From contig JAFGHO010000067.1 in the NCBI GenBank assembly GCA_016930085.1, positions 1,041 to 65,040 on the forward strand: DNA of 64,000 nt, read 5' to 3'. This stretch comes from Spirochaetales bacterium. Lineage in GTDB: Bacteria; Spirochaetota; Spirochaetia; SZUA-6; JAFGRV01. Positions 7,731 through 64,000 of the stretch are shown in pieces. The translations under genes were made by a program, and so were the position numbers. How positions within the stretch are numbered: position 1 is the first letter of the stretch; every line of letters begins with the position of its first letter. The notes below the pieces were generated by a model. That model saw only the letters and a list, made by a program, of their open reading frames with translations, was not told the DNA's origin and searched no databases.

Positions 7731-7807
7731 CGGGATGTCAATCGCGGTAGTATGAGTCCTTTCAGAGAAAATGTTTAAAATAATGTGGTGAGGTCCTGTA
7801 AAAAGTG

Positions 7808-7836: not shown

Positions 7837-7928
7837 GAACCTTGTATTATGATTTAAAAAAGCTGACCCGGGTTTTATAACAGTAACCGTAAAAATTCCC
7901 GGCACACTATATCGTTAGCAGGATAAAC

Positions 7929-8001
7929 GGGCCGCTAGCTCAGTAGGCAGAGCAACGCCCTTTTAAGGCGTGGGTCGAAGGTTCGAATCCTTCGCGGCTC
8001 A
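7929..8001 (+). tRNA. tRNA-Lys (anticodon UUU)
   Basis: Cloverleaf readable by eye. Acceptor GGGCCGC/GCGGCTC with one G-U pair. D-arm AGCTCAGTAGGCAGAGC. Anticodon loop CUUUUAA. T-arm GGTTCGAATCC. Discriminator A. CCA not encoded. Confidence 0.9.
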
Positions 8002-8008
8002 TAATAAA

Positions 8009-8036
8009 AGCAGGTGAGGTATCCTGCTTTTTTTTG
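8009..8036 (+). terminator. Rho-independent terminator after tRNA-Lys
   Basis: AGCAGG-tgaggtat-CCTGCT hairpin followed by TTTTTTTT. Confidence 0.7.
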
Positions 8037-8355
8037 TGCGCGCCCGTCAGGGTGCACCGCTTTAATGTGATTCTTAGATCATCGATGACGGGGACCATAC
8101 CGGTATCGGGTCTCATGAGCGTGTCAAGAAGGAGAGGTCCATGATCGGAATGGACCCGGCGTGAACACATCGTTTCGGCGTGATCGAGGGGCACTGAAGG
8201 CAGTCAATCCATAAAAAAAAGGATTTTGACCAAAGTAATACCGAAAAACTCTTGCAATTTCGCAAAGACTATATAATGATATAAGTGAGCCTCTATGACT
8301 ATTCTTTATTCATTATATATTACAGGCCTGAAAAGAGGAGGTAAGGAAGAGCGAT

Positions 8356-8871
8356 ATGGGAAAAACGTTTATCAAAAGAAAAACATATGTCATAGACAAA
8401 AAGTTTCAGTTCAGGTTTATTGCCACATTTCTTCTTTATATAGGGATATCTTTAATCATTTTTACCGTCGGTGTCGGTCTCTTTTACTGGTTTTCATATA
8501 TAGCGGGAGAAAATATTTTCAGTGAGTTTATTATCGTTTACAGGCAGATCGATGCAGTCGATAACGACGGGAATCACATCCTTGATGAATACGGCGATCC
8601 GGTAAAGACGACGGAACCCCTTCCCCCCGTCAATCGTATTCAGATCGTTCTCCCCGCGGTTCTTTTCAATAATATCATCATTATGATCATTATTTCCGTG
8701 CTTGGAATCTTTTACTCCCATAAAATAGCCGGACCGGTCTACAGAATCGATATGGAGATCTCAAAGGTTCTTGCCGGGGAAAAAGGGATCAGGATTAGGC
8801 TGAGAAGGAAAGACAAGCTTCAGAGTCTCGCGGAGAAAATAAATAAGCTTATCGAAAAAGCCGAGGGGTAA
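8356..8871 (+). CDS. Hypothetical membrane protein (2 TM segments)
   Basis: RBS GAGGAGG before ATG. Two hydrophobic helices. No identifiable domain. Confidence 0.5.
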   Translation: MGKTFIKRKTYVIDKKFQFRFIATFLLYIGISLIIFTVGVGLFYWFSYIAGENIFSEFIIVYRQIDAVDNDGNHILDEYGDPVKTTEPLPPVNRIQIVLPAVLFNNIIIMIIISVLGIFYSHKIAGPVYRIDMEISKVLAGEKGIRIRLRRKDKLQSLAEKINKLIEKAEG

Positions 8872-9037
8872 CGATAATTCCGTAAAACCACACTCACCTT
8901 TTCCATGTCTTTTCCCCGTTTCAAGCTTCACGATAACCGATGTCCCGGTAAGAATTCCGGCAATCCCGTACCGCTTTTTTCTCTCCGGTGCCCGAACACA
9001 ATTGACAAATTCGATGTTATCACGCAATGGTAGAGAT

Positions 9038-9772
9038 ATGGATAGAATCATTTTCGGGTATCATTCGATTGAAGAACGGCTTGAAAAAGGGGCGGGGAAG
9101 GCATGCCTGCTTTATTCAAGGGAAAAAGGAAGGTGCGGTCATATCATGGCACTGGCGGAACGGAAAGGTATCCGCGTGCAAAAGGTAAGTGAGGATGAAC
9201 TCGACAGACGATGCGAACGGCAAAAACACCGCGGTCTTCTTTTGATTATAGAAGGTATTCCGGAAGAACGGGTTGAAAAGGGGTCGTTTGTTGCCGAAAT
9301 CGATTCCCCCCATCCCGTTGTTCTCCTCCTTGACGGGATAACGGATCCTCATAATTACGGGGCCATTCTTCGTTGCGCAGACCAGTTCGGGGTTGACAGT
9401 GTGATCGCCCCGAAGCGGAAGTCGGCGCATGAAACGGGTGTAGTTCATGTCACCTCCGCGGGTGCTTCGGCATACGTCCGCCAGGTGGTTGTGGCGAATC
9501 TCGTGCATGCAATCGATCTTTTGAAAAAAGACGGATTCTGGATATACGGGGCTGATGCCGAGGGCGTGCCCGTTTATAATGTTGACCTTACCGGAAAAAT
9601 CGGAATAATCCTTGGAAGCGAGGGAAAGGGGATGAGACGGCTGGTACGGGAAGCATGCGATGCGATTATCGGCATCCCGCAGCGGGGGCATATCAATTCC
9701 CTGAATGTATCTGTTGCCGCCGGGATACTCCTTTACGAATGCAGGCGCCAACAGGGCCTTGAAAAAAAATGA
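9038..9772 (+). CDS. rlmB: 23S rRNA (guanosine-2'-O)-methyltransferase, SpoU/TrmH family (RlmB-like)
   Basis: SpoU_sub_bind N-domain followed by SpoU methylase motifs (LLLDGITDPHNYGAILRCADQFG; IGIILGSEGKGM; NSLNVSVAAGILLYE). Start chosen at MDRIIFGYHS. Confidence 0.75.
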   Translation: MDRIIFGYHSIEERLEKGAGKACLLYSREKGRCGHIMALAERKGIRVQKVSEDELDRRCERQKHRGLLLIIEGIPEERVEKGSFVAEIDSPHPVVLLLDGITDPHNYGAILRCADQFGVDSVIAPKRKSAHETGVVHVTSAGASAYVRQVVVANLVHAIDLLKKDGFWIYGADAEGVPVYNVDLTGKIGIILGSEGKGMRRLVREACDAIIGIPQRGHINSLNVSVAAGILLYECRRQQGLEKK

Positions 9773-10926
9773 ATATCCGGGAAGTGACCGCAAAAACAAT
9801 ACTGCGGAAATATAAAACAATCGATTCCTGGTTCATTTCACGTTACGGAATGAACCTCTACCGTGGGTGCGTTCATAATTGCATCTATTGTGACGGCAGA
9901 AGTGAAAAATACCTCGTCGAGGGCGAGTTCGGACACGATATCGATGTCAAGGTGAATGCGATCGAATTATTGCGCCGCGAACTCGATCCCGCGCGAAAAC
10001 GAAAACCCTTCAGAGCTTCTTATTTTCTTATGGGGGGCGGGGTGGGGGACAGTTACCAGGCGGTCGAGAGAAAATACCGGCTTTGCCGGCAGGCCCTCTC
10101 CCTCTGCCTTGACTTTTCCCACCCGGTGCATCTTTTGACAAAATCCACGTCCGTGGCGGAAGATATCGGACTCATTAGAAAAATACATGAAAAGCGCGGT
10201 GCGATCGTGTCCTTCAGTTTTTCAACTGTCGATGAAAAACTCGGCCGGCTCCTGGAACCCGGCGTTCCTTCTCCGAAAGAACGGCTCGAGGTGATGGCCC
10301 TGGTGAAAAAGGAAGGCATCCCGTGCGGCATGTTCCTGCTTCCCGTCGTTCCTTTTGTCACCGATACGGAAGACCTGATCGAAGCGTCCGTAAAAAAAGC
10401 CGCCGAAGCCGGGGCCGACTTTGTTATTTTCGGTCCGATGACCATGAAAAGGGGGCGGCAGGGGGATTATTTCATGAACACGATCCGGTCGTCGTTTCCG
10501 GACATACCGGAGAAATACCGCGCTGTCTACGGAAACGATGAATGGGGAAATCCGGTATCCTCGTATACCGATATGGTTCATGGACGGGTTGCCCCGATCG
10601 CATCGCGATACCGTATGCCGCTGCGCATTCCCATCGGACTTTTTGATACGCTGCTCGATGAAAACGACAGGGTAATCGTGCTGCTGCAACATATCGATTA
10701 TCTTCTCAAAATACGGGCTCAACCTTCTTCATTCGGTTATGGGGCCTACCTTCTTTCAAAACTCACGAAGCCGTTTTCGTCAATAAAAGAAGAGATCGAT
10801 AATATGGCCCGGCTGAATAAACGCGTTAAACAAACGGTTTTCGAAATTCTTCGAACGGGTTCCTCGTCACTCTACCGCCGGTTATGTCATTTTGAATTGC
10901 CCGTCTTGAGAACGCGAAAAGGATGA
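9769..10926 (+). CDS. Radical SAM protein, SplB / COG1533 (DNA photolyase-like) family
   Basis: N-terminal NLYRGCVHNCIYCDG (CxxxCxxC). Start overlaps the rlmB stop (ATGA). Confidence 0.65.
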   Translation: MNIREVTAKTILRKYKTIDSWFISRYGMNLYRGCVHNCIYCDGRSEKYLVEGEFGHDIDVKVNAIELLRRELDPARKRKPFRASYFLMGGGVGDSYQAVERKYRLCRQALSLCLDFSHPVHLLTKSTSVAEDIGLIRKIHEKRGAIVSFSFSTVDEKLGRLLEPGVPSPKERLEVMALVKKEGIPCGMFLLPVVPFVTDTEDLIEASVKKAAEAGADFVIFGPMTMKRGRQGDYFMNTIRSSFPDIPEKYRAVYGNDEWGNPVSSYTDMVHGRVAPIASRYRMPLRIPIGLFDTLLDENDRVIVLLQHIDYLLKIRAQPSSFGYGAYLLSKLTKPFSSIKEEIDNMARLNKRVKQTVFEILRTGSSSLYRRLCHFELPVLRTRKG

Positions 10927-10934
10927 AATCGCAC

Positions 10935-10963
10935 TTGACAGGGATACCGTAAAAAGTTATTGT
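10935..10963 (+). promoter_or_regulatory. Sigma70-like promoter (TTGACA-N17-TATTGT) upstream of trpE
   Basis: TTGACA at 10935-10940, 17-nt spacer, TATTGT at 10958-10963. No Trp-codon leader peptide or T-box was recognised in the 200-nt leader. Confidence 0.4.
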
Positions 10964-11167
10964 TTGCCTGCGTGAAAAAAAAACTGAAGTGGTTTTTCAG
11001 AATGCGTCAGACAAAAAAAGTGATCAGCCAGAAAGTTCATCCCCATGCCTTGAGACGAAAAGCCCCTTCAGTCGTAAAAGCGACGTATAAGAACTTCTTT
11101 ATGCCGGATCGAACGAAGTGAGTAATAAACGATCGAGATATTTTCACAGTATTCGAGGTGAAACGAT

Positions 11168-12580
11168 TTGAGTACGACAGTACCATTAAAACAGGGCCTT
11201 CTCAAAATTATCCCCGGTGAACGATTTACGCCCTTCTCCCTTGCATTGAAACTCCAGGCAAAAGTCATTCTGGAATCAGCTTCCTTTCACAAAGGGCGCG
11301 AGCGATGGTCCATCCTTCTGCTGAACGAGGCCTTCCGGGTATTCGAAACAAAACAGGGTATTTATATCGACCGTGACGGCAAGCGTTTTATGATCAAAAC
11401 CCCGGCCCGCGATATTCTCGATGTCCTTCTTTATATCGCCAACCAGCATGAAACCACCGACTACGATTTTCCGGTTCCTTCGGGGGGAATCGGATATATT
11501 ACCTATGAGAGCGCGTCGAAATTCGATACCATCCGCCTCATCGACAAACCGGACCGGATCGGTATTCCGGACGCTTTTTTTATCGTCGGCAACGTGTACC
11601 TTATTTTCGACCACTATACCGACTCGATTTTTCTTCTGGGACTCAATTATAATGAAAAAAAGATCGATCTCGAAGCGACACTTGCGTCAATTGAAAAACG
11701 GATAAATGATCTCGATTTCAATTTCATGACCTCATCGCCCGGTACCTATAATGCGGAGGTTATGGAAGTCAAAGGCGAGCGGGACAGGTTTCTCCAGGGC
11801 GTTATGGAGGTGAGAAAACATATCATCTGCGGCAATATTATCCAGGGGGTGCTCTCGAGGCGGGTATATATAAAAACCGGACTTCCCGCGATCGAAGCGT
11901 ATAGGAATCTCCGGGCACTCAATCCGTCGCCGTATCTTTTTTGTCTTGATTTTGACGCCTTCCAGATTTTCGGTTCTTCACCCGAGGTTCATGTGAAAGT
12001 GAAGAATAAAAAGGTGGAGATCCGGCCCATCGCCGGGACGAGAAAACGGGGGAAAAACGAGGAAGAGGAGATCGCTTTGCAAAAGGATCTGCTTTCGGAT
12101 GAAAAGGAACTCGCCGAACACCTCATGCTCGTCGATCTTGCCCGAAACGACATCGGGCGGGTTTGTATGCCGGGAAGCGTCGAATTGACTGAAAGTATGG
12201 TGATAGAAAAATATTCCCACGTGATGCATATCGTTTCGCAGGTGGAAGGAATCCTCGAAAAGGACAAAACGGGGGCGGACGCGCTGCGGGCGACATTTCC
12301 GGCAGGGACCGTGTCCGGTGCCCCGAAGATAAAGGCCATCGAGATTATCGATTCCCTGGAACCGGAAAAACGGTCTTTTTACGCCGGTATCGTCGGCTGG
12401 CTCGAACCCGGCGGCGATCTCAATTCGTGCATTACCATACGGAGTGCGTTCAAGAGAAAGGATCTTCTCGTCCTCCAGGCAGGGGCGGGAATCGTGTACG
12501 ATTCGGTACCGGAGAAAGAGTACGAGGAAACTTCGAACAAATTGCGGGCACTCGGGAAAGCGGTAGGAGTAGAGGTGTGA
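11168..12580 (+). CDS. trpE: Anthranilate synthase component I
   Basis: Chorismate-binding C-terminal domain (LMLVDLARNDIGRV...GAPKIKAIEIIDSLEPEKRSFYAGIVGW). Apparent TTG start with RBS GAGGTG 7 nt upstream; there is no in-frame ATG near the N-terminus. Confidence 0.9.
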   Translation: MSTTVPLKQGLLKIIPGERFTPFSLALKLQAKVILESASFHKGRERWSILLLNEAFRVFETKQGIYIDRDGKRFMIKTPARDILDVLLYIANQHETTDYDFPVPSGGIGYITYESASKFDTIRLIDKPDRIGIPDAFFIVGNVYLIFDHYTDSIFLLGLNYNEKKIDLEATLASIEKRINDLDFNFMTSSPGTYNAEVMEVKGERDRFLQGVMEVRKHIICGNIIQGVLSRRVYIKTGLPAIEAYRNLRALNPSPYLFCLDFDAFQIFGSSPEVHVKVKNKKVEIRPIAGTRKRGKNEEEEIALQKDLLSDEKELAEHLMLVDLARNDIGRVCMPGSVELTESMVIEKYSHVMHIVSQVEGILEKDKTGADALRATFPAGTVSGAPKIKAIEIIDSLEPEKRSFYAGIVGWLEPGGDLNSCITIRSAFKRKDLLVLQAGAGIVYDSVPEKEYEETSNKLRALGKAVGVEV

Positions 12581-17490: not shown

Positions 17491-17949
17491 ATGAAAAAAA
17501 AGAGGTATTGTCTGGTTTGTATTATGCTGCTTGGTGGAATCTTTCCGCTTTCCGCGCAATCGAACGAGATGCTCGATGAGCTGCTTTCGGAAGAGAGTGT
17601 ATCGTTCGGTAATGCCGTTTACATCGTTTTAGCGGGTGCCGGTCTGATCGGGGAAGGTGTGTCCGTCGAGGAGGCGGTCGGTATCCTTTTGGAACAGCAA
17701 TGGGGAATAAAAGGAAAGTCTCCGGAGGAACCCATCCACCTCGATGAATATTCGTTTCTGCTTATGAAAGCCTTGATGAAAGGGGGCGGATTGATGTATA
17801 CCCTGTTTCCTTCACCCCGTTACGCCTACCGGGAACTCGATTACCGGGGGCTTATCGAACAGCCCGCCGATCCCGGAAGAACCGTCTCTGGAGAAGAGGC
17901 GCTCAGGATGCTGGCCGGAGTACTCGCATTGAAGGAGGATGAAGGATGA
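17491..17949 (+). CDS. Secreted hypothetical protein
   Basis: Signal peptide (LLGGIFPLSAQS). First gene of a co-directional run of secreted proteins. ATGA overlap with the next gene. Confidence 0.55.
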   Translation: MKKKRYCLVCIMLLGGIFPLSAQSNEMLDELLSEESVSFGNAVYIVLAGAGLIGEGVSVEEAVGILLEQQWGIKGKSPEEPIHLDEYSFLLMKALMKGGGLMYTLFPSPRYAYRELDYRGLIEQPADPGRTVSGEEALRMLAGVLALKEDEG

Positions 17950-19283
17950 AGATACCGGTGAAACAGATCCTTGCCTGCGGATTGTTCATCCTGCTCGTGC
18001 TTCCTGCCGCGGCTATAGATTACGGGCTTACCGCCGACAACATAGTGACAATCTCTCAGGAAGCCGTCTTTTCCGGCAATTACCTCGGTAAAGCATCGCC
18101 ATGGATTTCATATGAAAGCGAGCACGTCTCCTTTGCACTCCAGGGGGTGTACATTTATACCTTCGAGATTCCCTTGTATATCGATCTCGATTATATGATG
18201 CTCGAGTACCGGACGCTTTTTTTCGGGGATTACACGGGCTTGTTTTCCGTGAGGGGAGGGCGCTTTCCCGTTTCCGATTTCACGGGTTGTGTCCTTAATC
18301 ACAAACTCGACGGGGTCCGGTTCGATTTCGCGAACGCGGGTTCCGAAATATCATTTTTCGCCGGGTACGCGGGACTGCTTCTCAAGCCGTACTCGACCAT
18401 CAGTCTAAGCAAGGCCGATATCTCTGATACGGGGGAACCTGATGTTATTCTGGCGCCCCCGCGGTTAGTCGGGATGCTGCAAATCGCCTTTCCGGAACTC
18501 TTTCCGAAACATACGATTACCGCGTCCTTCCTGGGGCAGATCGATCTGAGAACGGACGGACTCATCGAGGAGGGCGCGGGGACCTACGACGCTTCGACCG
18601 GCGGCTACCTTCATACCGTATATACCGGGGCCGGGCTTTCCGGTGGAATAGGGCCCGCTTTTTTTTACGATATCTTCGGGTATGCGGGTACCGGCGGCAT
18701 GCTCTCTTTTATCGGGGATATAAGCGGGATCGGGTTATATCAGTATAAACCGATTTTTTCCTTTCTTGCAGGCTTATCGATGAGAGTGTATTTCGATGAA
18801 CTGCTTCACTCCCGTCTTGGTGTTTCCGCGTTGTACGCGTCGGGAGACGCGGATTTCTCGGATTTTTATGAAGGAAATACCGATGGGGAGGCGAATCAGT
18901 TTATACCGATCGCCCATGAACCGGTCGCGCTTGTTTTCGCCCCGCAGCTTTCGAATATCGCGGTATGCGGACTTTCCTGGTCGATCAAACCCCTTTCTGC
19001 CGGTAAAGGCGATTTCATGCAGAACTTCCAGACGCAACTCACCGCCCAGGTTTTTCTTCGTCCGACGGCGGGTCCTATTTCAGAAGCGGGTTTGAACACT
19101 GATTCGGATGCCGTGTACCTTGGGATGGAGATCGACGCAACCATCAATATGAGAGTGCTTTCCGATGTCGGCTGCTCGATTTCCGCCGGTTGTTTCATCC
19201 CGGATAACACAGACGGCGGGGCTTTCGAAGGAAGCAGGGATGTCGAAATGGCCGCCAGGTTCGAGCTTTCAGTCGGGTTATAA
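17946..19283 (+). CDS. Secreted hypothetical protein (possible outer-membrane protein)
   Basis: Signal peptide. 445 aa, Gly/aromatic-rich with alternating hydrophobic segments. Translationally coupled to neighbours. Confidence 0.5.
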   Translation: MKIPVKQILACGLFILLVLPAAAIDYGLTADNIVTISQEAVFSGNYLGKASPWISYESEHVSFALQGVYIYTFEIPLYIDLDYMMLEYRTLFFGDYTGLFSVRGGRFPVSDFTGCVLNHKLDGVRFDFANAGSEISFFAGYAGLLLKPYSTISLSKADISDTGEPDVILAPPRLVGMLQIAFPELFPKHTITASFLGQIDLRTDGLIEEGAGTYDASTGGYLHTVYTGAGLSGGIGPAFFYDIFGYAGTGGMLSFIGDISGIGLYQYKPIFSFLAGLSMRVYFDELLHSRLGVSALYASGDADFSDFYEGNTDGEANQFIPIAHEPVALVFAPQLSNIAVCGLSWSIKPLSAGKGDFMQNFQTQLTAQVFLRPTAGPISEAGLNTDSDAVYLGMEIDATINMRVLSDVGCSISAGCFIPDNTDGGAFEGSRDVEMAARFELSVGL

Positions 19284-22326: not shown

Positions 22327-23826
22327 TCAGTCGCGCTCCCGTTCGATCTCCAGGACGTTTTTCCCCTTTATCGAACGGAGAATTTCTTCGACCTTGAAAT
22401 ACCGGTTTCGACCGATCATACTCACCCCGTCCGTGTACCGGAGGGAGTTGCCCTGCCAGTCGCTGGGGATCGGATCGTAGGCGATAAAATATTGTTCATC
22501 GAGACTGTAGCCTTTGATGACGATATAGTGGCCGGTGGTGTCCGGATAGAAACGGTCGACAAACACCAGCCGTTCGTCTCCTTCGACGGGCGAGAGAACG
22601 GTCGTGTTGAAACTGACGATCGCGATATTTCCCCAGTCGATGATCCGTTTCATGTCGTTGAATTGATCGATAACGGTAAGTGCCGTTTTTATTCGGTGGT
22701 AGTTGAAATTCATTATCATATGCTGGTAGGAAAGCGCCCCGGATTTGATGGGAAGGCCGATTTCCTCCCTGCTTTTTTCCACGCTGATATACTTCCCCGT
22801 GGCCCAATGAAGCGCGATAGCTACGCAGGCGGGACCGCAGTTTCCGTACATCCCGGTATCGAACTGCGTCTTGTACCAGTCATACTCCGGTTCGACGCTG
22901 TGCTGGGAAGGAAAGGGACTGACAAACAGATAAAAGCCGAAACTCGTTTCTCTGCCGGTCAGCGTTATCTTTGCGTACCCCGGGGCTATCGCGGTAAAGA
23001 CATCGTCAGCAGTCTGTTTGAGTAGTACCGGGCGCTGGATTATCCGCGTTTCCATGTCGAATGCCGGGGCTCCGGCTTCTTTACGCTGTATCACTTCTCC
23101 AAGATCGAGATTCCCGTTGACATGATCGATCGTATAAAACGGGAGACCCTCCTTTGTTTCGATGCGTGTTCTTTTCACGCGGACCGTCAGGGGTGAGGAA
23201 AGAACTTCCCGGCCGCTTCCGTCGGCGACGGACAGACGGACGGTGTAATCGCCCGATTTCATGTAGGTATACGAAGGACGTTCCTCCCGGGAAAAATAGC
23301 CCGTTCCGAAATCCCACACACAGGAGAGATCGTCGGGGACATCGAGGACCGGATAGAAATCGACACGCAGGGGAATGTTACCGTTTTTATTGAACGCCGA
23401 GACGGCGAGTGTGGTGGGAAGCGTGCCGGTCCGGTTTGTCGGTTCGCCCGGAAACGTGGAATTCCGTCGCTGTTCGATACCCTTCGGCAGATAAAGTGCC
23501 GTTCCCACGGCGAGCAGCCGCGAGTCGATCAGGCCGTTGTATCGTGCAATGCCGGCGGCGCTTATTCCATAGGAATCCGCGATACTGTGAATCGTGTCGC
23601 CGATTGCATACCGGTGGATGGGAGGTATGTCGTTATGTGATATAGCGGCGTCGGCCGGATTCCCGTCTTCCTCCGTCCCCGGTTCCGCATCCGCCGGCTC
23701 CGCCCCCGGCGGTTTTCCTTCCTGGTCGAAAAGCGAGAACGAGGCCAGCAAAGAGATCGGAACGGCGATACAGAGTACCAAAAGGACTATGAAAAGTATC
23801 CGGTTTCTTTTCATCATCTCTTTCAT
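22327..23826 (-). CDS. Secreted LysM - PKD - C39-like (papain-fold) peptidase
   Basis: Signal peptide. LysM (YAIGDTIHSIADSYGISAAGIARYNGL). PKD-like (VWDFGTGYF...YTVRLSVADGSG). C-terminal YGNCGPACVAIAL ... GHYIVIKGY (Cys/His peptidase_C39-like). Start chosen among ATG candidates 23856, 23826 and 23817. Confidence 0.65.
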   Translation of the reverse strand: MKEMMKRNRILFIVLLVLCIAVPISLLASFSLFDQEGKPPGAEPADAEPGTEEDGNPADAAISHNDIPPIHRYAIGDTIHSIADSYGISAAGIARYNGLIDSRLLAVGTALYLPKGIEQRRNSTFPGEPTNRTGTLPTTLAVSAFNKNGNIPLRVDFYPVLDVPDDLSCVWDFGTGYFSREERPSYTYMKSGDYTVRLSVADGSGREVLSSPLTVRVKRTRIETKEGLPFYTIDHVNGNLDLGEVIQRKEAGAPAFDMETRIIQRPVLLKQTADDVFTAIAPGYAKITLTGRETSFGFYLFVSPFPSQHSVEPEYDWYKTQFDTGMYGNCGPACVAIALHWATGKYISVEKSREEIGLPIKSGALSYQHMIMNFNYHRIKTALTVIDQFNDMKRIIDWGNIAIVSFNTTVLSPVEGDERLVFVDRFYPDTTGHYIVIKGYSLDEQYFIAYDPIPSDWQGNSLRYTDGVSMIGRNRYFKVEEILRSIKGKNVLEIERERD

Positions 23827-23962
23827 TTCTCTACAATGAAATGAGAGAAAAATCAAGAGTAATATGAGAGTTTATCCCGTCTTGTGTCGGGGACTGCTGT
23901 ACTTTCTCGACCGTATTTGATAAAATCATTGAAAAAGCTGTCAATGAAAAGGGAGTTGAATC

Positions 23963-27394: not shown

Positions 27395-29800
27395 TCAGTG
27401 GACAACATTCACCCCATACTGCTCGAGGAGGGGGATGATCTCGGAACCGGAATGATCACTCAGCGGATTATCGCTGACATTGACCGTTTCGAGCCGCGGA
27501 AGGTCGATGAGTACGGATAAATCCGTGATACGGTTTGACCGGATATCGAGATTCCACAAGTACGGAAAGCCGCTTAACGGCGAGATATCGGTGATGTTGT
27601 TGCCGCCGAGATCGCACATAGAGAGGTTTCTGTTTCCGGCGAGCGGCGTTATATCCGTTATCCCGTTTCCCGCGGCGTGGAAAAAACTCAGGGACGGCCA
27701 ATTCGCAAGCGGCGAAAGATCGGTAATAGTGTTGTTATTTATCGAAAGCGAATCGAGGCTTTCGATTCCGGAGAGGAATGAAATATCCGTCAGGCCGCAC
27801 TTGTCAAGCTTGAGATCGATGAGTTTGGGCATTTCCAGAAGCGGACTGAAATCGGTGATATCGTTGCCGGAAATATCGAGTCTGCCGAGATTTGTCATCG
27901 CCAGAAGGGGGCTTATATCCGTCACATTATTACCGCCGATATAAAAACCGGTATAACTGTGAAGCAGCTTGTTCAAAACACTCAGGTCACTGATCTCGTT
28001 GTCGTTGAGGTACATATTGGTGAAATAGGTACCCTCGAGAAAATCGAGGTTCGTGATATTGTTTGATTCGAGGTGCAGTGCCCAGATCATATAAAGGTTC
28101 GAGTCCGAAAATGATTCATAGTCCTCTATGGGGACGGCATTGAGGGAAAGGATATCGAGGTCGATGCCCACCCTGCGAAGCGGACGGACACGAGTGATCG
28201 GATTCCGGTCGAGATACAGTTCGCAGAGATACGGGAGGTCGCTGTTGTTGAAAGGACTCAGGTCGCTGATATTGTTTTCCTCGAGGTGGAGGTAAAAGAT
28301 ATTGCCCGTCATGATGGGGGTAATATCCGAGATATTGTTTTCCCTGAATTCCATCTGTGCTATTCCGTCAAGGTCCGATAAGGGCTCCAGACTCGTTATA
28401 TCGTTCCCGTTCATGCAAAGCCTGTCCAGTTCCGAAAGGTGCCTGAGCGGTTCGAGATCCGAGATATTGTTGTCATTCATATAAAGATTCACCAGTGAAG
28501 CCGGTCCTTCAATACCGGACAGGTCGCCTATCATGTTGTTGTTCGCTCTCAGGCTGGTGATAAGGGAGAGTCCGGCAAGGGGGGTAATGTCCGTGATCCG
28601 GTTGTCACTCATCTCGAGTATTTTCAAAGAGACGAGTCCCGCAAGGGCGTCGATGTGCGTGATGCGGTTGTTGTTCATGTACAGTTCCGTAAGGGAGGTG
28701 CAGCCCGAAAGGGGGCCGATATCGGCAATAGTGTTGTTGTTGACGGACAACTCGCTCAGGGAGACAAGTCCGGCGAGTGCGGTAATATCCGATATAGCAT
28801 TATTATCGAGATCAAGGGATGTGAGGGCCGTTTTCCCGGCAAGAGCGGAAATATCGGTGAGTTCATTATATTGCAGTTCACATCCTGTCAGTCCGTACAT
28901 GTTTCTGAGACTTTCAATATTCCGGATAGTATTGTTCGATAGAGAAAGCGAGGACAGGTTCACGAGTGGGGCAAGCGGCGTTATATCGGCGATACGGTTA
29001 TAACCTACATCGAGAGAGGCAAGCGATGTCAGGCCGGAGAGCGGCGATAGATTGGCAATCCGGTTGTGGCCGGCGTAAAGTCTGGTAAGGTGCGATAATC
29101 CCGCAAGGGGACCGAGGTCCGTGACAGAATTACCGCCGCAGGACAGATATTCAAGATTCACAAGATTCTTTATTGGAAGTAAATCGGAAATGGCGTTGTT
29201 TCCGATATAAAGGGTTTTGAGATTGAGGAGTCCGGCAAGGGGTGAAATGTCGGTAACGGCATTGCCTGATACGGCGATGTACGTCAGATTCGCAAGCGAA
29301 GAAAGCGGGCCCAGATCGGCGATAGTGCTGCCGGTGAATACGATCTCTTCGAGGGCGGGAAGGTGTTCAATCCCGCTTATATCCGAAATATTCGGTTGAC
29401 GCTGCCGGAGGGAGGTGATGTTTTCGACTTCAAAGGCGTAAATATGGCCGGTGGACTTGCTGATGGTGAAGCGGATGAGGCTTTCGAAGGCCGGATCGGG
29501 AAAGGTGAGTATTTCCTGCTTCCCGCAATATCCCGGGAATTCGCTTATACTCCCGATATAATATCGAGCCACCAAAAGGGCGTCCACAATGTCGGCCTTT
29601 CCGTCATCGTTTACATCCATGTTTTCAGGGGCAATATTGGGAGGGTTTGTTCCCACATAATACTGCGCTATCAGAAGGGAATCGACAATATCGATACGCC
29701 CGTCATTATTCGCATCGCCGCAGGTCTGCCCGAAGGCGGTCACTCCCGGAAAAACGATTATAATGAAGAGAATCAAAAGGGAAACAACGCCTGGTTTCAT
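27395..29800 (-). CDS. Secreted protein: N-terminal type-I dockerin + ~25 leucine-rich repeats (internalin-like)
   Basis: Signal peptide. Duplicated Ca-binding dockerin segments (GDANNDGRIDIVDSLLIAQYYVG / MDVNDDGKADIVDALLVARYYIG). Then LxxLxxLxLxxNxIxDISPL repeats throughout. Confidence 0.8.
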   Translation of the reverse strand: MKPGVVSLLILFIIIVFPGVTAFGQTCGDANNDGRIDIVDSLLIAQYYVGTNPPNIAPENMDVNDDGKADIVDALLVARYYIGSISEFPGYCGKQEILTFPDPAFESLIRFTISKSTGHIYAFEVENITSLRQRQPNISDISGIEHLPALEEIVFTGSTIADLGPLSSLANLTYIAVSGNAVTDISPLAGLLNLKTLYIGNNAISDLLPIKNLVNLEYLSCGGNSVTDLGPLAGLSHLTRLYAGHNRIANLSPLSGLTSLASLDVGYNRIADITPLAPLVNLSSLSLSNNTIRNIESLRNMYGLTGCELQYNELTDISALAGKTALTSLDLDNNAISDITALAGLVSLSELSVNNNTIADIGPLSGCTSLTELYMNNNRITHIDALAGLVSLKILEMSDNRITDITPLAGLSLITSLRANNNMIGDLSGIEGPASLVNLYMNDNNISDLEPLRHLSELDRLCMNGNDITSLEPLSDLDGIAQMEFRENNISDITPIMTGNIFYLHLEENNISDLSPFNNSDLPYLCELYLDRNPITRVRPLRRVGIDLDILSLNAVPIEDYESFSDSNLYMIWALHLESNNITNLDFLEGTYFTNMYLNDNEISDLSVLNKLLHSYTGFYIGGNNVTDISPLLAMTNLGRLDISGNDITDFSPLLEMPKLIDLKLDKCGLTDISFLSGIESLDSLSINNNTITDLSPLANWPSLSFFHAAGNGITDITPLAGNRNLSMCDLGGNNITDISPLSGFPYLWNLDIRSNRITDLSVLIDLPRLETVNVSDNPLSDHSGSEIIPLLEQYGVNVVH

Positions 29801-29982
29801 TTTTTTTTCCTTTTTTGATATATATTCGAACTGTATTTCAGTTGTCCGTTTATTTTTGCATCAATGAAAGGTAAACGTATCATTGTATAACTCATCCCGT
29901 AAAAAGAAGGACGTTAACCTGTCATTCGAGATATTATATACCATATTGTATCAGCCGTCAACAAAATGTTATTACAGAATCG

Positions 29983-30147: not shown

Positions 30148-30215
30148 AAGTAAAATATAAAATCCTATATTTTACTTTAAGGCCGTAAAGTAAAATATGG
30201 AATACTATATTTTAT
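30148..30215 (+). promoter_or_regulatory. Two tandem palindromic operator-like sites (AAGTAAAATAT-N8-ATATTTTA) upstream of or overlapping the fic start
   Basis: Site 1 at 30148-30177 and site 2 at 30188-30215, 40-bp register. Each is an inverted repeat AAAATAT...ATATTTT. Embedded in an AT-rich leader. Confidence 0.45.
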
Positions 30216-30228
30216 GTTGGGGAAAGAA

Positions 30229-31359
30229 ATGGATACAAAGGATTTCATGGCCGGTATTTATAAAAAGGCAGATAATTATCGGTATTTTATGCCTGAAAAA
30301 ATCAACCGTGCATTTATCTGGACAGATACTATGCTAAACGAAATCTTGGAAAAAGCATCGTTAAAACTAGGCGAACTGAACTCATTTTCACGACTTGTGC
30401 CGGATACCGATATGTTTATCCTTATGTATATTGTCAAGGAAGCGGTTATTTCAAGCCGTATTGAAGGAACACGGACTAATATCGAGGAAGCCTTTGCCGA
30501 AGAAAGTGATATCGATCCTGAAAAGAGGGACGACTGGAAGGAAGTGAAAAATTATGTCAACGCGATGAACCAGGCAATTAATGACCTTGAGAAGCTGCCT
30601 TTATCAAACCGGCTTATAAGAAAAACTCATGAGATATTATTGTCCGGAAGCAGGGGCGAAACAAAAACACCGGGAGAATTTCGTAAATCCCAGAACTGGA
30701 TCGGCGGGGTAAGTCTCGGCGATGCCGTTTTTATTCCTCCGTCACATATTGAATTGCCTGAATTATTATCGGATTTCGAGAAATTTCTGCATAACAGCGA
30801 TATCCATGTTCCACATCTGGTAAAGATAGCAATTGCCCATTATCAATTCGAGACTATACATCCATTCCTCGATGGTAACGGAAGGATTGGACGGCTTCTT
30901 ATAACACTTTACCTTGTCGCTAACGGAATCCTGGAGAAGCCTCTGTTGTATCTTTCGGATTTTTTCAATAAAAATAAAACATTGTATTATGACAATTTGA
31001 CTTTTGTACGCACCAAAAACGATCTCAATCAATGGATCAGATTTTTTTTGACGGGCGTTATCGATACGGCGGAAAACGGCGTTGCGACACTAAGGAAAAT
31101 AATTGCACTAAAAGAAACGATCGAGCATGATCATATCATGAAGATGGGAAAACGGCTTCAAACGGGACTTGCCCTGTTGCATGGAATATTAAGACAACCT
31201 CTGGTTTCGGCAAAAGACGTACAGGAAATGACACGTCTTTCTCCAAAGGCCGCAAACGATATTATAGATATTTTTATAGAAAAAAATATACTTGTCGAGA
31301 CCACAGGGTATAGACGAAATCGAAGTTATTTGTTCGAGTCATATATCAGGATGTTTTGA
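30229..31359 (+). CDS. fic: Fic/Doc family protein (AMPylator-type) with C-terminal winged-helix
   Basis: Canonical Fic motif HPFLDGNGRIGR. Alternative ATG at 30214 lies inside operator site 2. Confidence 0.85.
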   Translation: MDTKDFMAGIYKKADNYRYFMPEKINRAFIWTDTMLNEILEKASLKLGELNSFSRLVPDTDMFILMYIVKEAVISSRIEGTRTNIEEAFAEESDIDPEKRDDWKEVKNYVNAMNQAINDLEKLPLSNRLIRKTHEILLSGSRGETKTPGEFRKSQNWIGGVSLGDAVFIPPSHIELPELLSDFEKFLHNSDIHVPHLVKIAIAHYQFETIHPFLDGNGRIGRLLITLYLVANGILEKPLLYLSDFFNKNKTLYYDNLTFVRTKNDLNQWIRFFLTGVIDTAENGVATLRKIIALKETIEHDHIMKMGKRLQTGLALLHGILRQPLVSAKDVQEMTRLSPKAANDIIDIFIEKNILVETTGYRRNRSYLFESYIRMF

Positions 31360-31411
31360 CTTTGAGAATATTTTTATATGCTACTTCTTTATTAACCCGG
31401 GAGACTTGTAT

Positions 31412-32584
31412 TTGAGTAGTGAAAGTAAACAAATAAGCAATCCTTTTTCAACAGGTGGAGGTGGCATATATTTCGAAACACGCGTACAGTCGCTTTTTGT
31501 TGCGCTTATGCTTACGGGAGGATTTGCTCCATGTTTACCATGCTGCCCGATTACCAGGATTAAACTTCAGGGAAGATTTGCCGGATTCAATACTGATGAT
31601 ATGATCGTTTATATGAGTGATACATCGGGTAAGGAACGAAAACTTCTTGGACAGATCAAACATACAATAAGTATAACCGAAAGCGAAGAGGTTTTTAGAG
31701 AAGTAATACAGGCCGCATGGAATGATTATAGTAATCCGGATATTTTTACAAAAAATGAAGATGTTTTTGCACTTATTACCGGCCCTCTCAGTGTGACTGA
31801 TATCAATGATACAAGAACGATACTTGAATGGGCGAGGGCTTCAGGAAATGCAGATGAGTTTTTTACCAAAGTGAAACTGGCAAGATTTAGCAGTAAGCAA
31901 AAGAAAAAAAAGCTGGATGTATTCAAGCTCAATCTAAAGAAAGCTAACAAAGAAAAAGATATACCCAATGAAATTATTTTCGATTTTCTTAAACATTTCA
32001 ATCTTATCGGTTACGACCTTGACATCAAGTCCGGTGTCACATTGTCACTATTACATTCTATAATTGGTCAGTATTCACAGGATAATGCAGAATCAATATG
32101 GACAAGAATTGTCGATGAGGTTCAATCGGCAAACAAAAATGCAGGCACAATAACAATGGATATGCTTCCGGTGGAATTACAAAACATTTTTGGCAAGAAA
32201 GAAATCAATACAATACCTTCTGATTTACCAAAACCAGAGATTGAATCTATTTCTCCAGACTGGACACACCATAAATATGCTGTTCCATTATCAATCTCAG
32301 TTATTGCAGGTGCATGGAACGAGCAAAATCAAATGGATTGCGAGATTGTCGGCAAACTTGCAGGTGAAAATTACGAATCATGGATAGTCAAATTAAGAGA
32401 AATACTTCATGAATCGGAGAATCCTCTTGATTTTCGAAACGGACGCTGGAATATAAAAAACAGAATAAATCTGTGGGATATGCTGGGCTCGAGGATTTTT
32501 GGCAATAATCTGGATACATTCAAGGAATGTGCAATCAAGGTATTAGCGGAATATGACCCTCAATTTGATTTAAAACCAGAATAA
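31412..32584 (+). CDS. Hypothetical protein (no recognisable domain), island gene 2
   Basis: Long AT-rich ORF. Probable TTG start at 31412 with RBS GGGAGA 7 nt upstream; the ORF track extends it to a TTG at 31292 overlapping fic. No signal peptide or TM segment. Confidence 0.5.
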   Translation: MSSESKQISNPFSTGGGGIYFETRVQSLFVALMLTGGFAPCLPCCPITRIKLQGRFAGFNTDDMIVYMSDTSGKERKLLGQIKHTISITESEEVFREVIQAAWNDYSNPDIFTKNEDVFALITGPLSVTDINDTRTILEWARASGNADEFFTKVKLARFSSKQKKKKLDVFKLNLKKANKEKDIPNEIIFDFLKHFNLIGYDLDIKSGVTLSLLHSIIGQYSQDNAESIWTRIVDEVQSANKNAGTITMDMLPVELQNIFGKKEINTIPSDLPKPEIESISPDWTHHKYAVPLSISVIAGAWNEQNQMDCEIVGKLAGENYESWIVKLREILHESENPLDFRNGRWNIKNRINLWDMLGSRIFGNNLDTFKECAIKVLAEYDPQFDLKPE

Positions 32585-32614
32585 AGATTTGCAGCAGGTA
32601 TCCATGGAAAGGTT

Positions 32615-34981
32615 TTGAGTTATTCACGTGATATACGTAAAGGTATGGCAGAAGGGCTTGCCTTGATGGGCACAAGATCAAAATCGTTGATTAATTGTAC
32701 GGAACAAAAACCGGAAGCTGTTGCTGTTCTTACGATAAGAGAAATTTTTGATAAAGCCGGTTGGAAACGCTGGGCAAGTCTGAACGATTTGCTTCCAATA
32801 TTAGCCGAAGCATCGCCCGTAGAATTCCTTACTGCTGTGGAGCAGGCATTACAACAAAATGAATGCCCTTTTGATGAATTATTCGCACAGGAAGGAAAAG
32901 GATTATTGGGAAGTAATTATCTGTCCGGATTATGGTGGGCTTTGGAAGCTCTTTCATGGGATGAGGAATATATAACTCGAACATGTGTCATTCTTGGAGA
33001 ACTTGCATCTCATGATCCTGGCGGGAATTGGGCCAATCGACCAATTAATTCCTTAACTTCGATTTTATTGCCATGGCATCCTCAAACAAAAGCAAATAGT
33101 GATACAAGGATCGCCGCTTTCAAGGCTGTCCTTTTAGAATTTCCCGGAATTGCCTGGAAACTGGTCATTAATTTACTTCCTGAACAACATCAAACTTCAT
33201 CCAGTACATATAAACCACAATGGCGTAATCCAATACCTGGAGATTGGAAACCCAAAGTAACAAACAAGGAATATCAGGATCAAGTTGAAAAATATGCAGA
33301 TATAGCTGTTTATATGGCTGTTACAGATCCTTCCAGGATTAAGGATTTGGTTGAAAATCTTGATAATCTGCCTGAATCATCCTTTGACAGGATATTGAGA
33401 CATATTTCTTCAAAACAGGTAACATCGCTTCCTGAAAATGAACGGTTGCCCATTTGGATAAGTTTGAAACAATGTGCCAGAAAGCACCGGCGGTATGCAG
33501 ACACACAATGGGCTCTGGATGCTGTTTCAGTATCAAAAATAGAAGCGGCTGCCAAAAAGATTGCACCTGAAAGCCCTGAGGGGCGTTACAGAGAACTTTT
33601 TATAAATAGAAGCAATTATCTTTATGAAAGTAATAGTGATATACAAGAACAGAATGATAAATTGAATGAAAAACGACAAAAAGCTGTACAGGAAATAATG
33701 GATAAAGATGGAATTAATGGGATTATAGCTTTTACACATACTGTTGAATCTGCTGAGCAGGTAGGATGGGCACTTGGCGCAATAGCAAATGACGAAATCG
33801 ATACTTATTTGTTGCCTGAATTTTTAACGGATAAGACAGAAAAAATCAAACGCTTCATAAGCATGTATATATTAAATCGATATTGTATATATAGATGGGA
33901 ATGGGTTGATGGGTTGAATCGCTCTCACTGGACCATGGATCATAATTGTCAGTTCCTCATGTGTTTGCCATTTGTCATCGATACATGGCATAGAGTAACA
34001 AAATGGCTAAACGAAGATGAAAATCAATACTGGAAAAAAGTTAATGTTAATCCATATGATTCAGATGATGACCTTGTTTTCGCAATCGATAAACTTATTG
34101 AGGCAGGAAGACCTCAAAAAGCAATTGATTGCCTGTGTTACAGAAAATACAAGAAATTGCCACTAGATAGGGATCGTACAATGAAAGCTTTATTTAATGC
34201 AATATCTTCTGAAGAATCATCGGCTTATATAGATTCTTTAAATGCTATAGAACTTATTAAAGAACTTCAAAACGATCCTGAAGCCGATCCAAACGATCTT
34301 TTTAAAATCGAATGGGCATATTTACCCTTACTCGATTCTCATCACGATGCCGAACCAAAGTTTCTTGAGAAACAACTCGCTTCAAACCCTGGGTTTTTCT
34401 GCGAATTGATTCAACTTGTGTTTAAATCCAGCAAAGAAGAAAAAAATGACATTAATATAAATGAAGGAAGCAAAAATATTGCGGAGAATACATGGAGACT
34501 TCTTCATAATTGGAAAAGGCCGCCTGGAATGAATGAAAATGGAAATTTCGAATCAAAATATTTTAAGTCATGGCTTGAAATTGTAAAAGAAAAGTGCAGG
34601 GAATCCGGACATTATGAAGTAGCTATGAGGAAGATAGGTGAGGTGCTTGTATATTGTCCTGCCGATAAAGAGGGACTCTGGATTGATAAAGATATTGCAA
34701 GAATGCTGAATGAAAAGGATGCCGATCCTATGAGAAGGGGATTCAATACAGAAGTATACAATTCGAGAGGTTTTCATGCAGTTGATCCAAAAGGTAAACA
34801 GGAAAGGGAAATAGCTGGTAAATGGAGGGAAAAAGCATATGCTGTCGATAATGAAGGTTTCGCACGATTTGCCGCATCATTACGCGAGTTGGCCGGTTCT
34901 TTTGAACGTGAAGCAAGGATGTTTAAAAATATATTTATTGATGAATTCGGATTGGTAACTGGTGAGGAAGATACAGACTAA
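32615..34981 (+). CDS. Hypothetical 788-aa protein (no recognisable domain), island gene 3
   Basis: Uninterrupted 2.37-kb ORF, AT-rich, predicted cytoplasmic and largely alpha-helical. Start uncertain (TTG 32615 or ATG 32645). Confidence 0.55.
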   Translation: MSYSRDIRKGMAEGLALMGTRSKSLINCTEQKPEAVAVLTIREIFDKAGWKRWASLNDLLPILAEASPVEFLTAVEQALQQNECPFDELFAQEGKGLLGSNYLSGLWWALEALSWDEEYITRTCVILGELASHDPGGNWANRPINSLTSILLPWHPQTKANSDTRIAAFKAVLLEFPGIAWKLVINLLPEQHQTSSSTYKPQWRNPIPGDWKPKVTNKEYQDQVEKYADIAVYMAVTDPSRIKDLVENLDNLPESSFDRILRHISSKQVTSLPENERLPIWISLKQCARKHRRYADTQWALDAVSVSKIEAAAKKIAPESPEGRYRELFINRSNYLYESNSDIQEQNDKLNEKRQKAVQEIMDKDGINGIIAFTHTVESAEQVGWALGAIANDEIDTYLLPEFLTDKTEKIKRFISMYILNRYCIYRWEWVDGLNRSHWTMDHNCQFLMCLPFVIDTWHRVTKWLNEDENQYWKKVNVNPYDSDDDLVFAIDKLIEAGRPQKAIDCLCYRKYKKLPLDRDRTMKALFNAISSEESSAYIDSLNAIELIKELQNDPEADPNDLFKIEWAYLPLLDSHHDAEPKFLEKQLASNPGFFCELIQLVFKSSKEEKNDININEGSKNIAENTWRLLHNWKRPPGMNENGNFESKYFKSWLEIVKEKCRESGHYEVAMRKIGEVLVYCPADKEGLWIDKDIARMLNEKDADPMRRGFNTEVYNSRGFHAVDPKGKQEREIAGKWREKAYAVDNEGFARFAASLRELAGSFEREARMFKNIFIDEFGLVTGEEDTD

Positions 34982-41224: not shown

Positions 41225-41752
41225 CTAGAAAATTTTGAAGAGGACCGATACACCCAGAAGCCCTTCGATGTTTTCCGGCTTGAATATATCGGCTGAATCT
41301 TCGCTGAGATCGATATCCATGAGGTAATTGAGTCCGATGGAAATTCCGCCGAGCATCACCTCGCCGCTCAGCTTGAGATTCATCCCCAGGTTGACTGTTT
41401 CCTCGAATCCCGGATCGCCCAGGTAGACGATTAGGTTCGGACCAAGACCCACTCCAAACCTGAAGATGAATATATCAAGCGCAATACCAAGATTGGTAAA
41501 CAGCTCGATGGAGCCTGGGTCGTCTTCATACCCGGGCTGGAAGAATGCGAAAGCCCCTGCCTGGAAGATACTCAGCTTCAAGCGGGTATCGAGTCCAAAG
41601 GTAAAATCATTCACCGAGAGTTCTTTCGCACCCGGCAGATCATCGGGCTCTGAAACATAGAAGTTGTAAAATGCTGTAGGCCCAATCTGGAAATCGGCAA
41701 ACGCTGCCAACGGTAACAAGAGAATTGCCAGGATAATTAGTATTCGTTGCAT
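41225..41752 (-). CDS. Small outer-membrane beta-barrel protein (OmpW/OmpA-like 8-strand type)
   Basis: Signal peptide (LLLPLAAFADF). Alternating hydrophobic strands. C-terminal ...VLFKIF aromatic terminus. Confidence 0.55.
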   Translation of the reverse strand: MQRILIILAILLLPLAAFADFQIGPTAFYNFYVSEPDDLPGAKELSVNDFTFGLDTRLKLSIFQAGAFAFFQPGYEDDPGSIELFTNLGIALDIFIFRFGVGLGPNLIVYLGDPGFEETVNLGMNLKLSGEVMLGGISIGLNYLMDIDLSEDSADIFKPENIEGLLGVSVLFKIF

Positions 41753-63724: not shown

Positions 63725-64000
63725 CTAAAACCCCGATATAATCCCGACATAATACTGTGCGATTCTGAGGGCGTCGGCTATGGTAATCGAGCCGTCCCTG
63801 TTGACGTCCGCATTGGCGGTAATAAAACCGGAAGGCGAAAGCCCGACGTAATATTGCGCCGTCAGCAATGCATCGACGATACTGACGGAGCCGTCGCCGT
63901 TGACATCGCCCAACGTTCCGGGTACGGGCGTCGAGGTATTGTTCACCGCTTCGAGCAGGGCCTGTTGTATTGCGTAATAAGCCGGTTTTTTGTTGCCGCT
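63725..64000 (-). CDS. C-terminal type-I dockerin module of a larger protein whose 5' part lies beyond the window end
   Basis: Reading frame open to base 64000. Duplicated dockerin segments GDVNGDGSVSIVDALLTAQYYVG / ADVNRDGSITIADALRIAQYYVG, near-identical to the dockerin of the LRR protein at 29.8 kb. Confidence 0.7.
   Translation of the reverse strand, partial: SGNKKPAYYAIQQALLEAVNNTSTPVPGTLGDVNGDGSVSIVDALLTAQYYVGLSPSGFITANADVNRDGSITIADALRIAQYYVGIISGF

Follow-up and report, generated by a model that had tools for sequence, protein, structure and literature searches.

In textbooks, cellulosomes are presented as a feature of Gram-positive Clostridia and of anaerobic fungi, and dockerins found outside these organisms are usually left uninterpreted. 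The DNA analyzed here is a 64-kb stretch (the window) of a metagenome-assembled genome (MAG) labelled Spirochaetales bacterium, a label taken from the sequence records. Two genes with type-I dockerin modules are encoded on its minus strand. The first, at 27395..29800, specifies a leucine-rich repeat (LRR) protein with a dockerin close to the N-terminus. The second, at 63725..64000, is the 3'-end of a gene whose product ends in a dockerin and appears to be a GH10 xylanase. On balance, the LRR and GH10 proteins are probably cargo subunits of a cohesin-dockerin assembly.

Dockerins directly after a signal peptide have been described for Ruminococcus flavefaciens FD-1, which has 19 of them and also encodes SIGN-LRR-Doc and SIGN-Doc-SERPIN proteins (Rincon et al. 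2010, PMC2930009). The window resembles this system in the non-catalytic LRR cargo with a dockerin, in the dockerin that follows the signal peptide, and in the presence of GH10-dockerin enzymes alongside. R. flavefaciens is a Gram-positive Firmicute with the proven scaffoldins ScaA-E, whereas the window host is a spirochaete MAG. The dockerin is C-terminal to the LRR in the tabulated LRR proteins of R. flavefaciens and N-terminal in the window protein, and the dockerin subtype of the window (IVDALLxAQYYVG, with flanking cysteines) differs from that of R. flavefaciens. Among diderms, a cellulosome-like complex was inferred from MAGs for Ca. Stygibacter of the Cloacimonadota (Williams et al. 2021, PMC8542988). 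Dockerins are already on record for diderms, namely for Bacteroidetes (PMC6487960), Cloacimonadota (PMC8542988), and Omnitrophota (PMC10066038); the papers on Omnitrophota and Bacteroidetes also discuss non-cellulosomal dockerins. The initial annotation of the window inferred a diderm host, in agreement with the label of a diderm order, and called such systems poorly characterised in diderms; as these reports show, dockerins in diderms are nothing new. No description of cohesin-dockerin systems in Spirochaetes was found in the literature searched, and none is listed for this phylum in a rumen survey (PMC6487960, Table 2). For proteins of this sort in Spirochaetales MAGs, the name "dockerin type I repeat-containing protein" is already in use at NCBI. 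The parts of the window (a type-I dockerin, an internalin-type LRR domain, and a GH10-dockerin protein) are all of known kinds.

The gene at 27395..29800 is complete, including the stop codon, and encodes 801 amino acids arranged as signal peptide, dockerin, and internalin-type LRR domain, as identified from the open reading frame (ORF) listing and Pfam. The identical gene was called on Logan contig SRR13394437_209607, which is an independent assembly. The predicted Sec signal peptide, residues 1-22 (29735..29800, minus strand), was read directly from the translation as MKPGVVSLLILFIIIVFPGVTA, followed by FGQ. An A-x-A-like VTA motif places the putative cleavage site after residue 22. The type-I dockerin module occupies residues 27-92 (29525..29722, minus strand), and a linker of about 3 residues leads to the LRR domain at residues 96-801 (27398..29515, minus strand). 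The duplicated Ca-binding dockerin directly after the signal peptide had been recognized in the initial annotation, and this layout stands. A sigma-70-like promoter match (TTGACG-17-TATAAT, 11/12) obtained as a pattern in a consensus scan is located about 130 nt upstream of the ATG, at 29933..29961 on the minus strand, and suggests that the gene may have its own promoter.

The LRR domain was assigned using phmmer against the Protein Data Bank (PDB) and the register of the repeats. It consists of an internalin-like N-cap (residues 96-124), the repeat units (residues 125-788), and a C-terminal cap that ends in NPLSDHSGSEIIPLLEQYGVNVVH. About 29-30 units of about 22 residues each are counted by register, rather than the 25 repeats given originally. 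Pfam matches this part of the protein with LRR_4 at an E-value of 6.5e-86 and also with LRR_8. Internalin A (2omv_A) matches the first 280 residues with an E-value of 2.6e-73, and the alignment begins in the cap. The NCBIfam scores are 339 bits for internalin_A (cut-off 1600) and 306 bits for internalin_H (cut-off 1050), and neither an LPXTG nor a GW anchor motif is present in the 801-residue translation, which ends in the LRR C-cap. The protein thus has an internalin-like LRR domain and yet is no internalin, because the NCBIfam scores are far below the cut-offs and the anchors are absent. Listeria internalin A (2omv/1o6s) has the same 22-residue LRR units and internalin-type N-cap, with 15 LRR units. 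The window protein differs from it in its 29-30 or so units, in having no inter-repeat Ig-like region, and in having no LPXTG or GW motif; it would be anchored, if at all, via the dockerin. No orthologue appeared in a homologue search with the whole protein, where the best identities were 26-41% and the LRR repeats swamped the results. The 801-residue product is a secreted, non-catalytic protein with an N-terminal dockerin on a long LRR solenoid.

Both dockerins were characterized using Pfam Dockerin_1 (PF00404, cut-off 22.9 bits). For the LRR protein, residues 28-80 match profile positions 2-55 of 57 with 42.2 bits and an E-value of 9.2e-11. For the GH10 protein, residues 30-83 of the fragment (63752..63913, minus strand) match positions 1-55 of 57 with 50.4 bits and an E-value of 2.6e-13; a dockerin at the end of this partial gene had been proposed initially and is confirmed. 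A dockerin hidden Markov model (HMM) was applied to the complete six-frame translation of the window (628 segments) and detected exactly these two genes, with E-values of 1e-34 and 9e-33. The next match has an E-value of 2, and the motif is therefore not a chance occurrence. Taken at face value, two dockerin genes, and only two, in 64 kb suggest a dockerin-rich genome.

The Ca loops of the two dockerins read DANNDGRIDIVD, DVNDDGKADIVD, DVNGDGSVSIVD, and DVNRDGSITIAD. All four contain D or N at positions 1, 3, 5, and 12 and D, S, or T at position 9, and the Ca-ligand columns are invariant in the dockerin alignment (A6). In the LRR protein the loops (F-hand) are D29-D40 and D62-D73, each followed by a helix with the motif IVD(S/A)LL(I/V)A(Q/R)YY(V/I)G. 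This dockerin aligns end to end with solved, cohesin-binding type-I dockerins (4fl4_A, E-value of 8.5e-8; 1daq, 1.7e-6), and the dockerin of the GH10 protein matches 4fl4_A at 6.9e-7 and 2y3n_B at 1.6e-6. An AlphaFold2 (AF2) model was made for residues 25-100 of the LRR protein, covering its dockerin only, from an alignment of 44 sequences. The mean predicted local distance difference test score (pLDDT) is 90.1 and helices appear at model residues 14-24 and 47-57. In a Foldseek search of the PDB with this model, the first 36 entries are dockerins without exception, the majority of which were crystallized in complex with cohesins; their query-normalised template-modelling (TM) scores are 0.58-0.76 and the root-mean-square deviations 1.1-4.5 Å. 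Dockerins alone are returned down to an E-value of about 0.75, and unrelated proteins, including a troponin complex, appear only at about 1 and above. The initial annotation had named generic EF-hand-like repeats as the alternative to dockerins. Weak, sub-threshold EF-hand Pfam matches do occur on loop 2 of the GH10 dockerin (E-values of 0.008-0.045), but these compare with 42-50 bits for Dockerin_1, the Ca-ligand positions are intact in all four loops, and the fold search is exclusive to dockerins over the range given above. A generic Ca-binding repeat is therefore close to inconceivable, and this reading was rejected on the Pfam scores, the PDB dockerin alignments, and the Foldseek result. 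Both segments are true type-I dockerins, with Ca binding predicted from their loops.

The window dockerins share with the type-I dockerins of Clostridium (Acetivibrio) thermocellum a duplicated F-hand fold, two Ca sites, and the architecture of GH10 plus dockerin. The comparators from this organism were the dockerin of a family-9 glycoside hydrolase (4fl4), Cel48S (1daq/2mte), Xyn10B/XynY (1ohz), and Doc435 (4dh2), which match the AF2 model with TM scores of 0.58-0.76 and 26-35% identity. The recognition positions differ, being hydrophobic I-V and A-Q/A-R in the window and S-T and K-R in C. thermocellum. Unlike the C. thermocellum dockerins, that of the LRR protein is bracketed by Cys27 and Cys92. 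The two window dockerins had been called near-identical; they do share the subtype signature IVDALLxAQYYVG in genes about 34 kb apart, but when aligned they are 56% identical (35/63). Within each dockerin the positions of the recognition surface are alike in both halves, with IV/IA at loop positions 10-11 and AQ/AR at positions 17-18. This we take to be the pattern of dockerins with a dual binding mode.

The second gene is cut by the window edge, and its last 91 codons plus the stop codon (63725-63727) lie within the window, where the minus-strand frame ends in GDVNGDGSVSIVDALLTAQYYVGLSPSGFITANADVNRDGSITIADALRIAQYYVGIISGF. Logan contig L002 overlaps the end of the window and lengthens the product from 91 to 119 amino acids, the residues gained upstream reading WGIRDNQSWR...PLIFDDSGNKKPAYYAIQQAL. 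The extended product matches positions 275-310 of 311 (the last 36) of Glyco_hydro_10 with 26.9 bits, above the Pfam cut-off of 22.1; the catalytic residues are situated further upstream, outside both the window and L002. It also aligns to the C-terminal strand and helix of solved GH10 xylanases, 1isv_A among them, with an E-value of 1.6e-6. The check suggested initially, whether the upstream part of this gene is a carbohydrate-active enzyme (CAZyme), thus came out in favor of a CAZyme. There is a good probability that the gene encodes a GH10 xylanase with a C-terminal dockerin, the classic layout of a cellulosomal enzyme. A homologue search with the GH10-dockerin fragment returned short dockerin fragments only and no full-length xylanase.

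Relatives of the dockerin were collected using phmmer with a 71-residue module against 1.84 billion cluster representatives. Matches were obtained in 4,375 clusters at an E-value of 1e-3 or below and in 816 clusters at 1e-10 or below. The relatives that carry a taxonomic name are from bins assigned to Calditrichota, Chitinispirillaceae, and Spirochaetales. The placement of the module was counted in the best 150. A single dockerin, 55-69% identical, is carried by 63 of these; in 25 it comes immediately behind the signal peptide and precedes more than 100 further residues, and in 23 it is C-terminal. Internal dockerins and multiple copies of this subtype are also found. Separately, 53 of the best 150 (P0268-P0300 among them) have at least 4 and up to 17 matched stretches, which corresponds to many tandem dockerins. 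An N-terminal dockerin had been described as atypical; the nearly equal counts and the precedent in R. flavefaciens (PMC2930009) indicate otherwise, and N-terminal placement is normal for this subtype.

Ten relatives with an N-terminal dockerin were scanned for cargo domains. Eight of them contain TIG, an LVIVD propeller, a malectin-PKD-Sde182-like arrangement, GH2, DUF6345, GH16 (twice, once with F5/8), and a beta-helix, respectively. Of the remaining two, one has only a sub-threshold beta-helix match and the other has no domain besides the dockerin. LamG is also among the cargo fused to this subtype. LRR homologues from other phyla show that the combination of LRR and dockerin recurs, sometimes together with a cohesin; in these proteins the dockerin is usually C-terminal and followed by a C-terminal domain (CTD) of the FlgD-Ig type, like that of the type IX secretion system (T9SS). 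These CTDs, together with the need of such proteins to cross an outer membrane, could favor a reading in which the dockerin-like segment is itself a secretion or sorting tag, analogous to the T9SS CTD, and no binding module. Sorting signals are position-specific, however, whereas this module occurs about equally after the signal peptide and at the C-terminus as well as internally and in multiple copies, and the CTD, where present, is a separate additional domain. A sorting tag is very improbable on these grounds. The very diverse cargo and the placement at either terminus instead fit the pattern of a general docking tag.

Many members of the subtype have paired cysteines in one of two patterns, as surveyed in P0130-P0133, P0146, and P0208. 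In the first, a cysteine just before loop 1 (C-GDxN) is combined with a C-terminal cysteine, as for Cys27 and Cys92 of the window protein and in P0146. In the second, a cysteine at position 4 of loop 2 (DVNCDG) is combined with a C-terminal FC. The GH10 dockerin of the window has neither pattern. The paired cysteines that bracket the module, Cys27 and Cys92 included, are probably joined in a disulfide clasp. Cys27 was also considered as the cysteine of a lipoprotein; this reading was dropped, since FGQTC is not a canonical lipobox and the pairing of cysteines in relatives fits a disulfide clasp better.

A cohesin profile search identified a family of proteins with C-terminal cohesin-dockerin tandems in which the dockerin is of the window subtype. 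The subtype is fused to a cohesin in P0132, P0139, P0208, P0229, and L011. Protein P0208 matches Pfam Cohesin with 31.6 bits (cut-off 24.1) and also Dockerin_1; a single-sequence AF2 prediction of it has a pLDDT of 34.6. It is encoded on JAFGRV010000320.1, a 7-kb contig (L009/L010) of Spirochaetales bacterium Zod_Metabat.855, which also encodes a CotH-LRR protein that is an LRR homologue of the window protein. A scan of GTDB genomes with the cohesin-dockerin family led to JAFGWI010000239.1 (19.6 kb) of Spirochaetales ZodW_Metabat.242. At 9569-11698 on the plus strand this contig (L012) encodes a partial, scaffoldin-like protein of at least 710 amino acids that runs off the contig. A signal peptide is followed by CBM64, a linker, three cohesin-like repeats, a second CBM64, and the start of a fourth repeat. 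The CBM64 assignment has a Pfam E-value of 4.6e-48 and matches to 5lu3 and 5e9p in the PDB at about 1e-13. The L012 repeats are 34-46% identical to one another and to the cohesins of the P0208 type. Compared with an independent set of Pfam-annotated cohesins, they gave an hhalign probability of 93% with an E-value of 2.6e-7 and, in a local hmmsearch, an E-value of 1.6e-10. An hhalign comparison of A3 with A1 gave 99% but was judged partly circular, as both alignments hold the P0132/P0208 family; it was dropped and repeated with independent sets.

ZodW_Metabat.242 also encodes P0157, a small signal-peptide protein with the window dockerin subtype. Near the P0157 gene, a GH5 cellulase is encoded two genes away and an F5/8-CBM9 protein three genes away. 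The genes of the window and the contigs of both Spirochaetales MAGs all occur in run SRR13394437. Judging from the isolate names Zod and ZodW, both MAGs probably come from the dataset of the Zodletone sulfidic spring (BioProject PRJNA690107; PMC9040765), in whose paper dockerins are not mentioned. Two other Spirochaetales MAGs from the same runs thus have cohesins together with the same dockerin subtype, which indirectly supports a cohesin scaffold elsewhere in the genome of the window. In its MAG-based inference this case resembles Ca. Stygibacter, likewise an uncultured diderm from an anoxic aquatic site, with dockerins on signal-peptide enzymes and with tandem cohesins plus carbohydrate-binding modules on a large scaffoldin-like protein. 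Ca. Stygibacter belongs to another phylum, has the scaffoldin and the dockerin enzymes in one MAG, and has a T9SS-type CTD on the scaffoldin; here the scaffoldin-like protein sits in a different Spirochaetales MAG, uses CBM64, and lacks its C-terminus. The solved CBM64 modules (5E9P and 5LU3) are appended to free GH5/GH12 enzymes, presumably cellulases of Spirochaeta thermophila, whereas in the related MAG ZodW_Metabat.242 two CBM64 modules are placed in a cohesin array.

Several observations weigh against a scaffold in the genome of the window and, with it, against the proposed assembly. No cohesin was detected in the 64-kb window by Pfam scans of about 40 ORFs or by four custom cohesin HMMs in six frames, for which the best E-value is 0.3. 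The MAG of the window (proteins MBN1698xxx, of which the window encodes MBN1698218-MBN1698259) differs from both MAGs with cohesins (MBN2441xxx and MBN2738xxx). Protein P0208 is 88% identical to P0132 from a Calditrichota bin, and both are encoded on contigs of 6-7 kb; the near-identity across phyla may reflect recent horizontal transfer or mis-binning. The L012 repeats are below detection by Pfam Cohesin at an E-value of 0.01, and no solved cohesin is matched by sequence with a profile of the L012/P0208 repeats, so that their assignment as cohesins depends on identity to the P0208 type, profile-profile comparison, and custom HMMs. For the dockerin proteins no route of export across the outer membrane was identified, and nothing relevant to cell-surface anchoring (SLH, sortase signal, or CTD) was seen in the window, although no search was aimed at such modules. 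Elsewhere, many non-clostridial genomes are reported with dockerins and few or no cohesins, for example Bacteroidetes bins from camel rumen, in which 11 dockerins but no cohesin were counted (PMC6071333, Table 1). As cited in PMC6487960 and PMC10066038, Peer et al. 2009 found dockerins without a cognate cohesin to be common outside Clostridia.

The absence of a cohesin from the window and the genomes just mentioned speak for orphan dockerins, as does the proposal that non-cellulosomal dockerins in Omnitrophota act as adhesins (PMC10066038). The genome of the window would then have no cohesin, and the module would be a Ca2+-stabilised binding or structural unit that engages an envelope component, a polysaccharide, or another dockerin protein. 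Against this are the physical fusions of the subtype to cohesins in the five proteins listed above, its co-occurrence with a multi-cohesin protein in another Spirochaetales MAG of the same dataset, and the similar recognition positions in the two halves of each dockerin. We consider orphan dockerins unlikely, but more credible than the other alternatives.

The near-identical modules in different bins can also be read as a "public" docking code, in which released cargo plugs into the scaffoldins of other community members and the producer needs no cohesin of its own. The cohesin-dockerin modules of the subtype are 67-92% identical to P0132 and 71-85% to P0208; two of them are in bins named Calditrichota and Spirochaetales, and the others are on metagenome fragments. 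The dockerin subtype also occurs in a Chitinispirillaceae bin. A further relative is encoded at 7343-10575 (plus strand) of CAZGJX010000047.1 (L011) from an "uncultured archaeon" MAG. This GH5-fn3-...-PKD-cohesin-dockerin protein has the window subtype, and its cohesin-dockerin is 49% identical to that of Spirochaetales. The L011 reading frame is broken inside the cohesin at about 10189, either by a frameshift or through an error in the assembly. Mis-binning may equally account for the high identities, however, as the contigs are short, and cohesin-dockerin specificity is usually species-restricted in the systems that have been studied, which counts against docking between species. Cross-species docking as the whole explanation is accordingly improbable.

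The case for cohesin partners of the LRR and GH10 proteins is made by the intact dockerin architecture, the use of the subtype as a position-independent tag on diverse cargo, its fusion to cohesins, and the scaffoldin-like protein of another Spirochaetales MAG. In addition, the 64 kb of the window contain more than one secreted dockerin protein of a single type, a probable CAZyme included. In the proposed assembly both dockerins would plug, in a Ca2+-dependent manner, into cohesins on a scaffold whose gene is located elsewhere in the genome. An environmental spirochaete would thereby possess an assembly that resembles a cellulosome and is either extracellular or at the cell surface. Catalysis would be left to the xylanase, and the LRR protein may bind proteins or other ligands and so serve in adhesion or recruitment, a role already suggested for LRR-dockerin proteins in R. 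flavefaciens. The scaffold would likely take the form seen in ZodW_Metabat.242 (signal peptide-CBM64-cohesin x3-CBM64-cohesin...) and could tether the complex to cellulose. In a wider and tentative version, which we consider doubtful as a whole, free-living Spirochaetales of an anoxic sulfidic spring would build a cellulosome-like machine in which GH10 xylanases and LRR adhesins are mounted on a CBM64 multi-cohesin scaffoldin, with a docking code that may be shared between phyla and may allow mixed-species complexes. The sharing or exchange of the code is suggested by the near-identical modules in the Calditrichota and Spirochaetales bins, the subtype in Chitinispirillaceae, and the 49%-identical archaeal relative.

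The remaining content of the window is ordinary for a chromosome and includes a trp operon, leuA, radical-SAM enzymes, PPK2, and ABC permeases; an Rfam scan detected tRNA-Lys only. Four signal-peptide proteins that resemble beta-barrels have no Pfam family and are encoded at 4660-5874 (plus strand), 6540-7730 (plus strand), 17946-19283 (plus strand), and 41225-41752 (minus strand). Two of these have weak, far sub-threshold NCBIfam matches to PorV/PorQ (FadL-like). They are consistent with outer-membrane proteins and a diderm envelope.

Directly upstream of the LRR gene is a low-GC island (30214-34981, GC content of 0.38 against about 0.50 elsewhere) that contains, besides a Fic_N/Fic gene, two large ORFs of 430 and 788 amino acids without a Pfam match; the island may represent an insertion of the mobile or defence type. 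The GH10-dockerin gene is directly adjoined by the genes for a 647-residue ankyrin-repeat protein (61364-63307, minus strand) and an SH3_3 protein (60491-61258, minus strand). With the LRR protein, these make the region rich in "eukaryote-like" repeat proteins. At 49312-52623 (minus strand) a hybrid sensor of 1,103 amino acids is encoded that contains 7TMR-DISM 7TM, HisKA/HATPase, receiver, and class III adenylate/guanylate cyclase domains. The 770-residue product of 54435-56747 (minus strand) has no Pfam match and a weak likeness to an oligosaccharide amylase (TIGR01577, GH15-like). Its gene adjoins that of a homologue of the C45-family autoproteolytic acyltransferases/hydrolases (56884-58611, minus strand; 124 bits). 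A protein of 509 amino acids with LysM, PKD, and Peptidase_C39_2 domains is encoded at 22327-23856 (minus strand).

The more interesting lead is the scaffoldin-like CBM64-cohesin protein, which is outside the window and in a different MAG. No description of such an architecture for Spirochaetes was found in the literature searched. A cellulosome-like machine built by Spirochaetales would, if real, be the first described for Spirochaetota in that literature. If the pieces do not belong together, the window dockerins would be one more instance of the widespread "orphan" dockerins. If they do, scaffolded polysaccharide degradation would extend to the Spirochaetota. One would then have to ask by what means a diderm exports and anchors complexes of this kind, and a compact, disulfide-bracketed cohesin-dockerin pair would become available for protein engineering.

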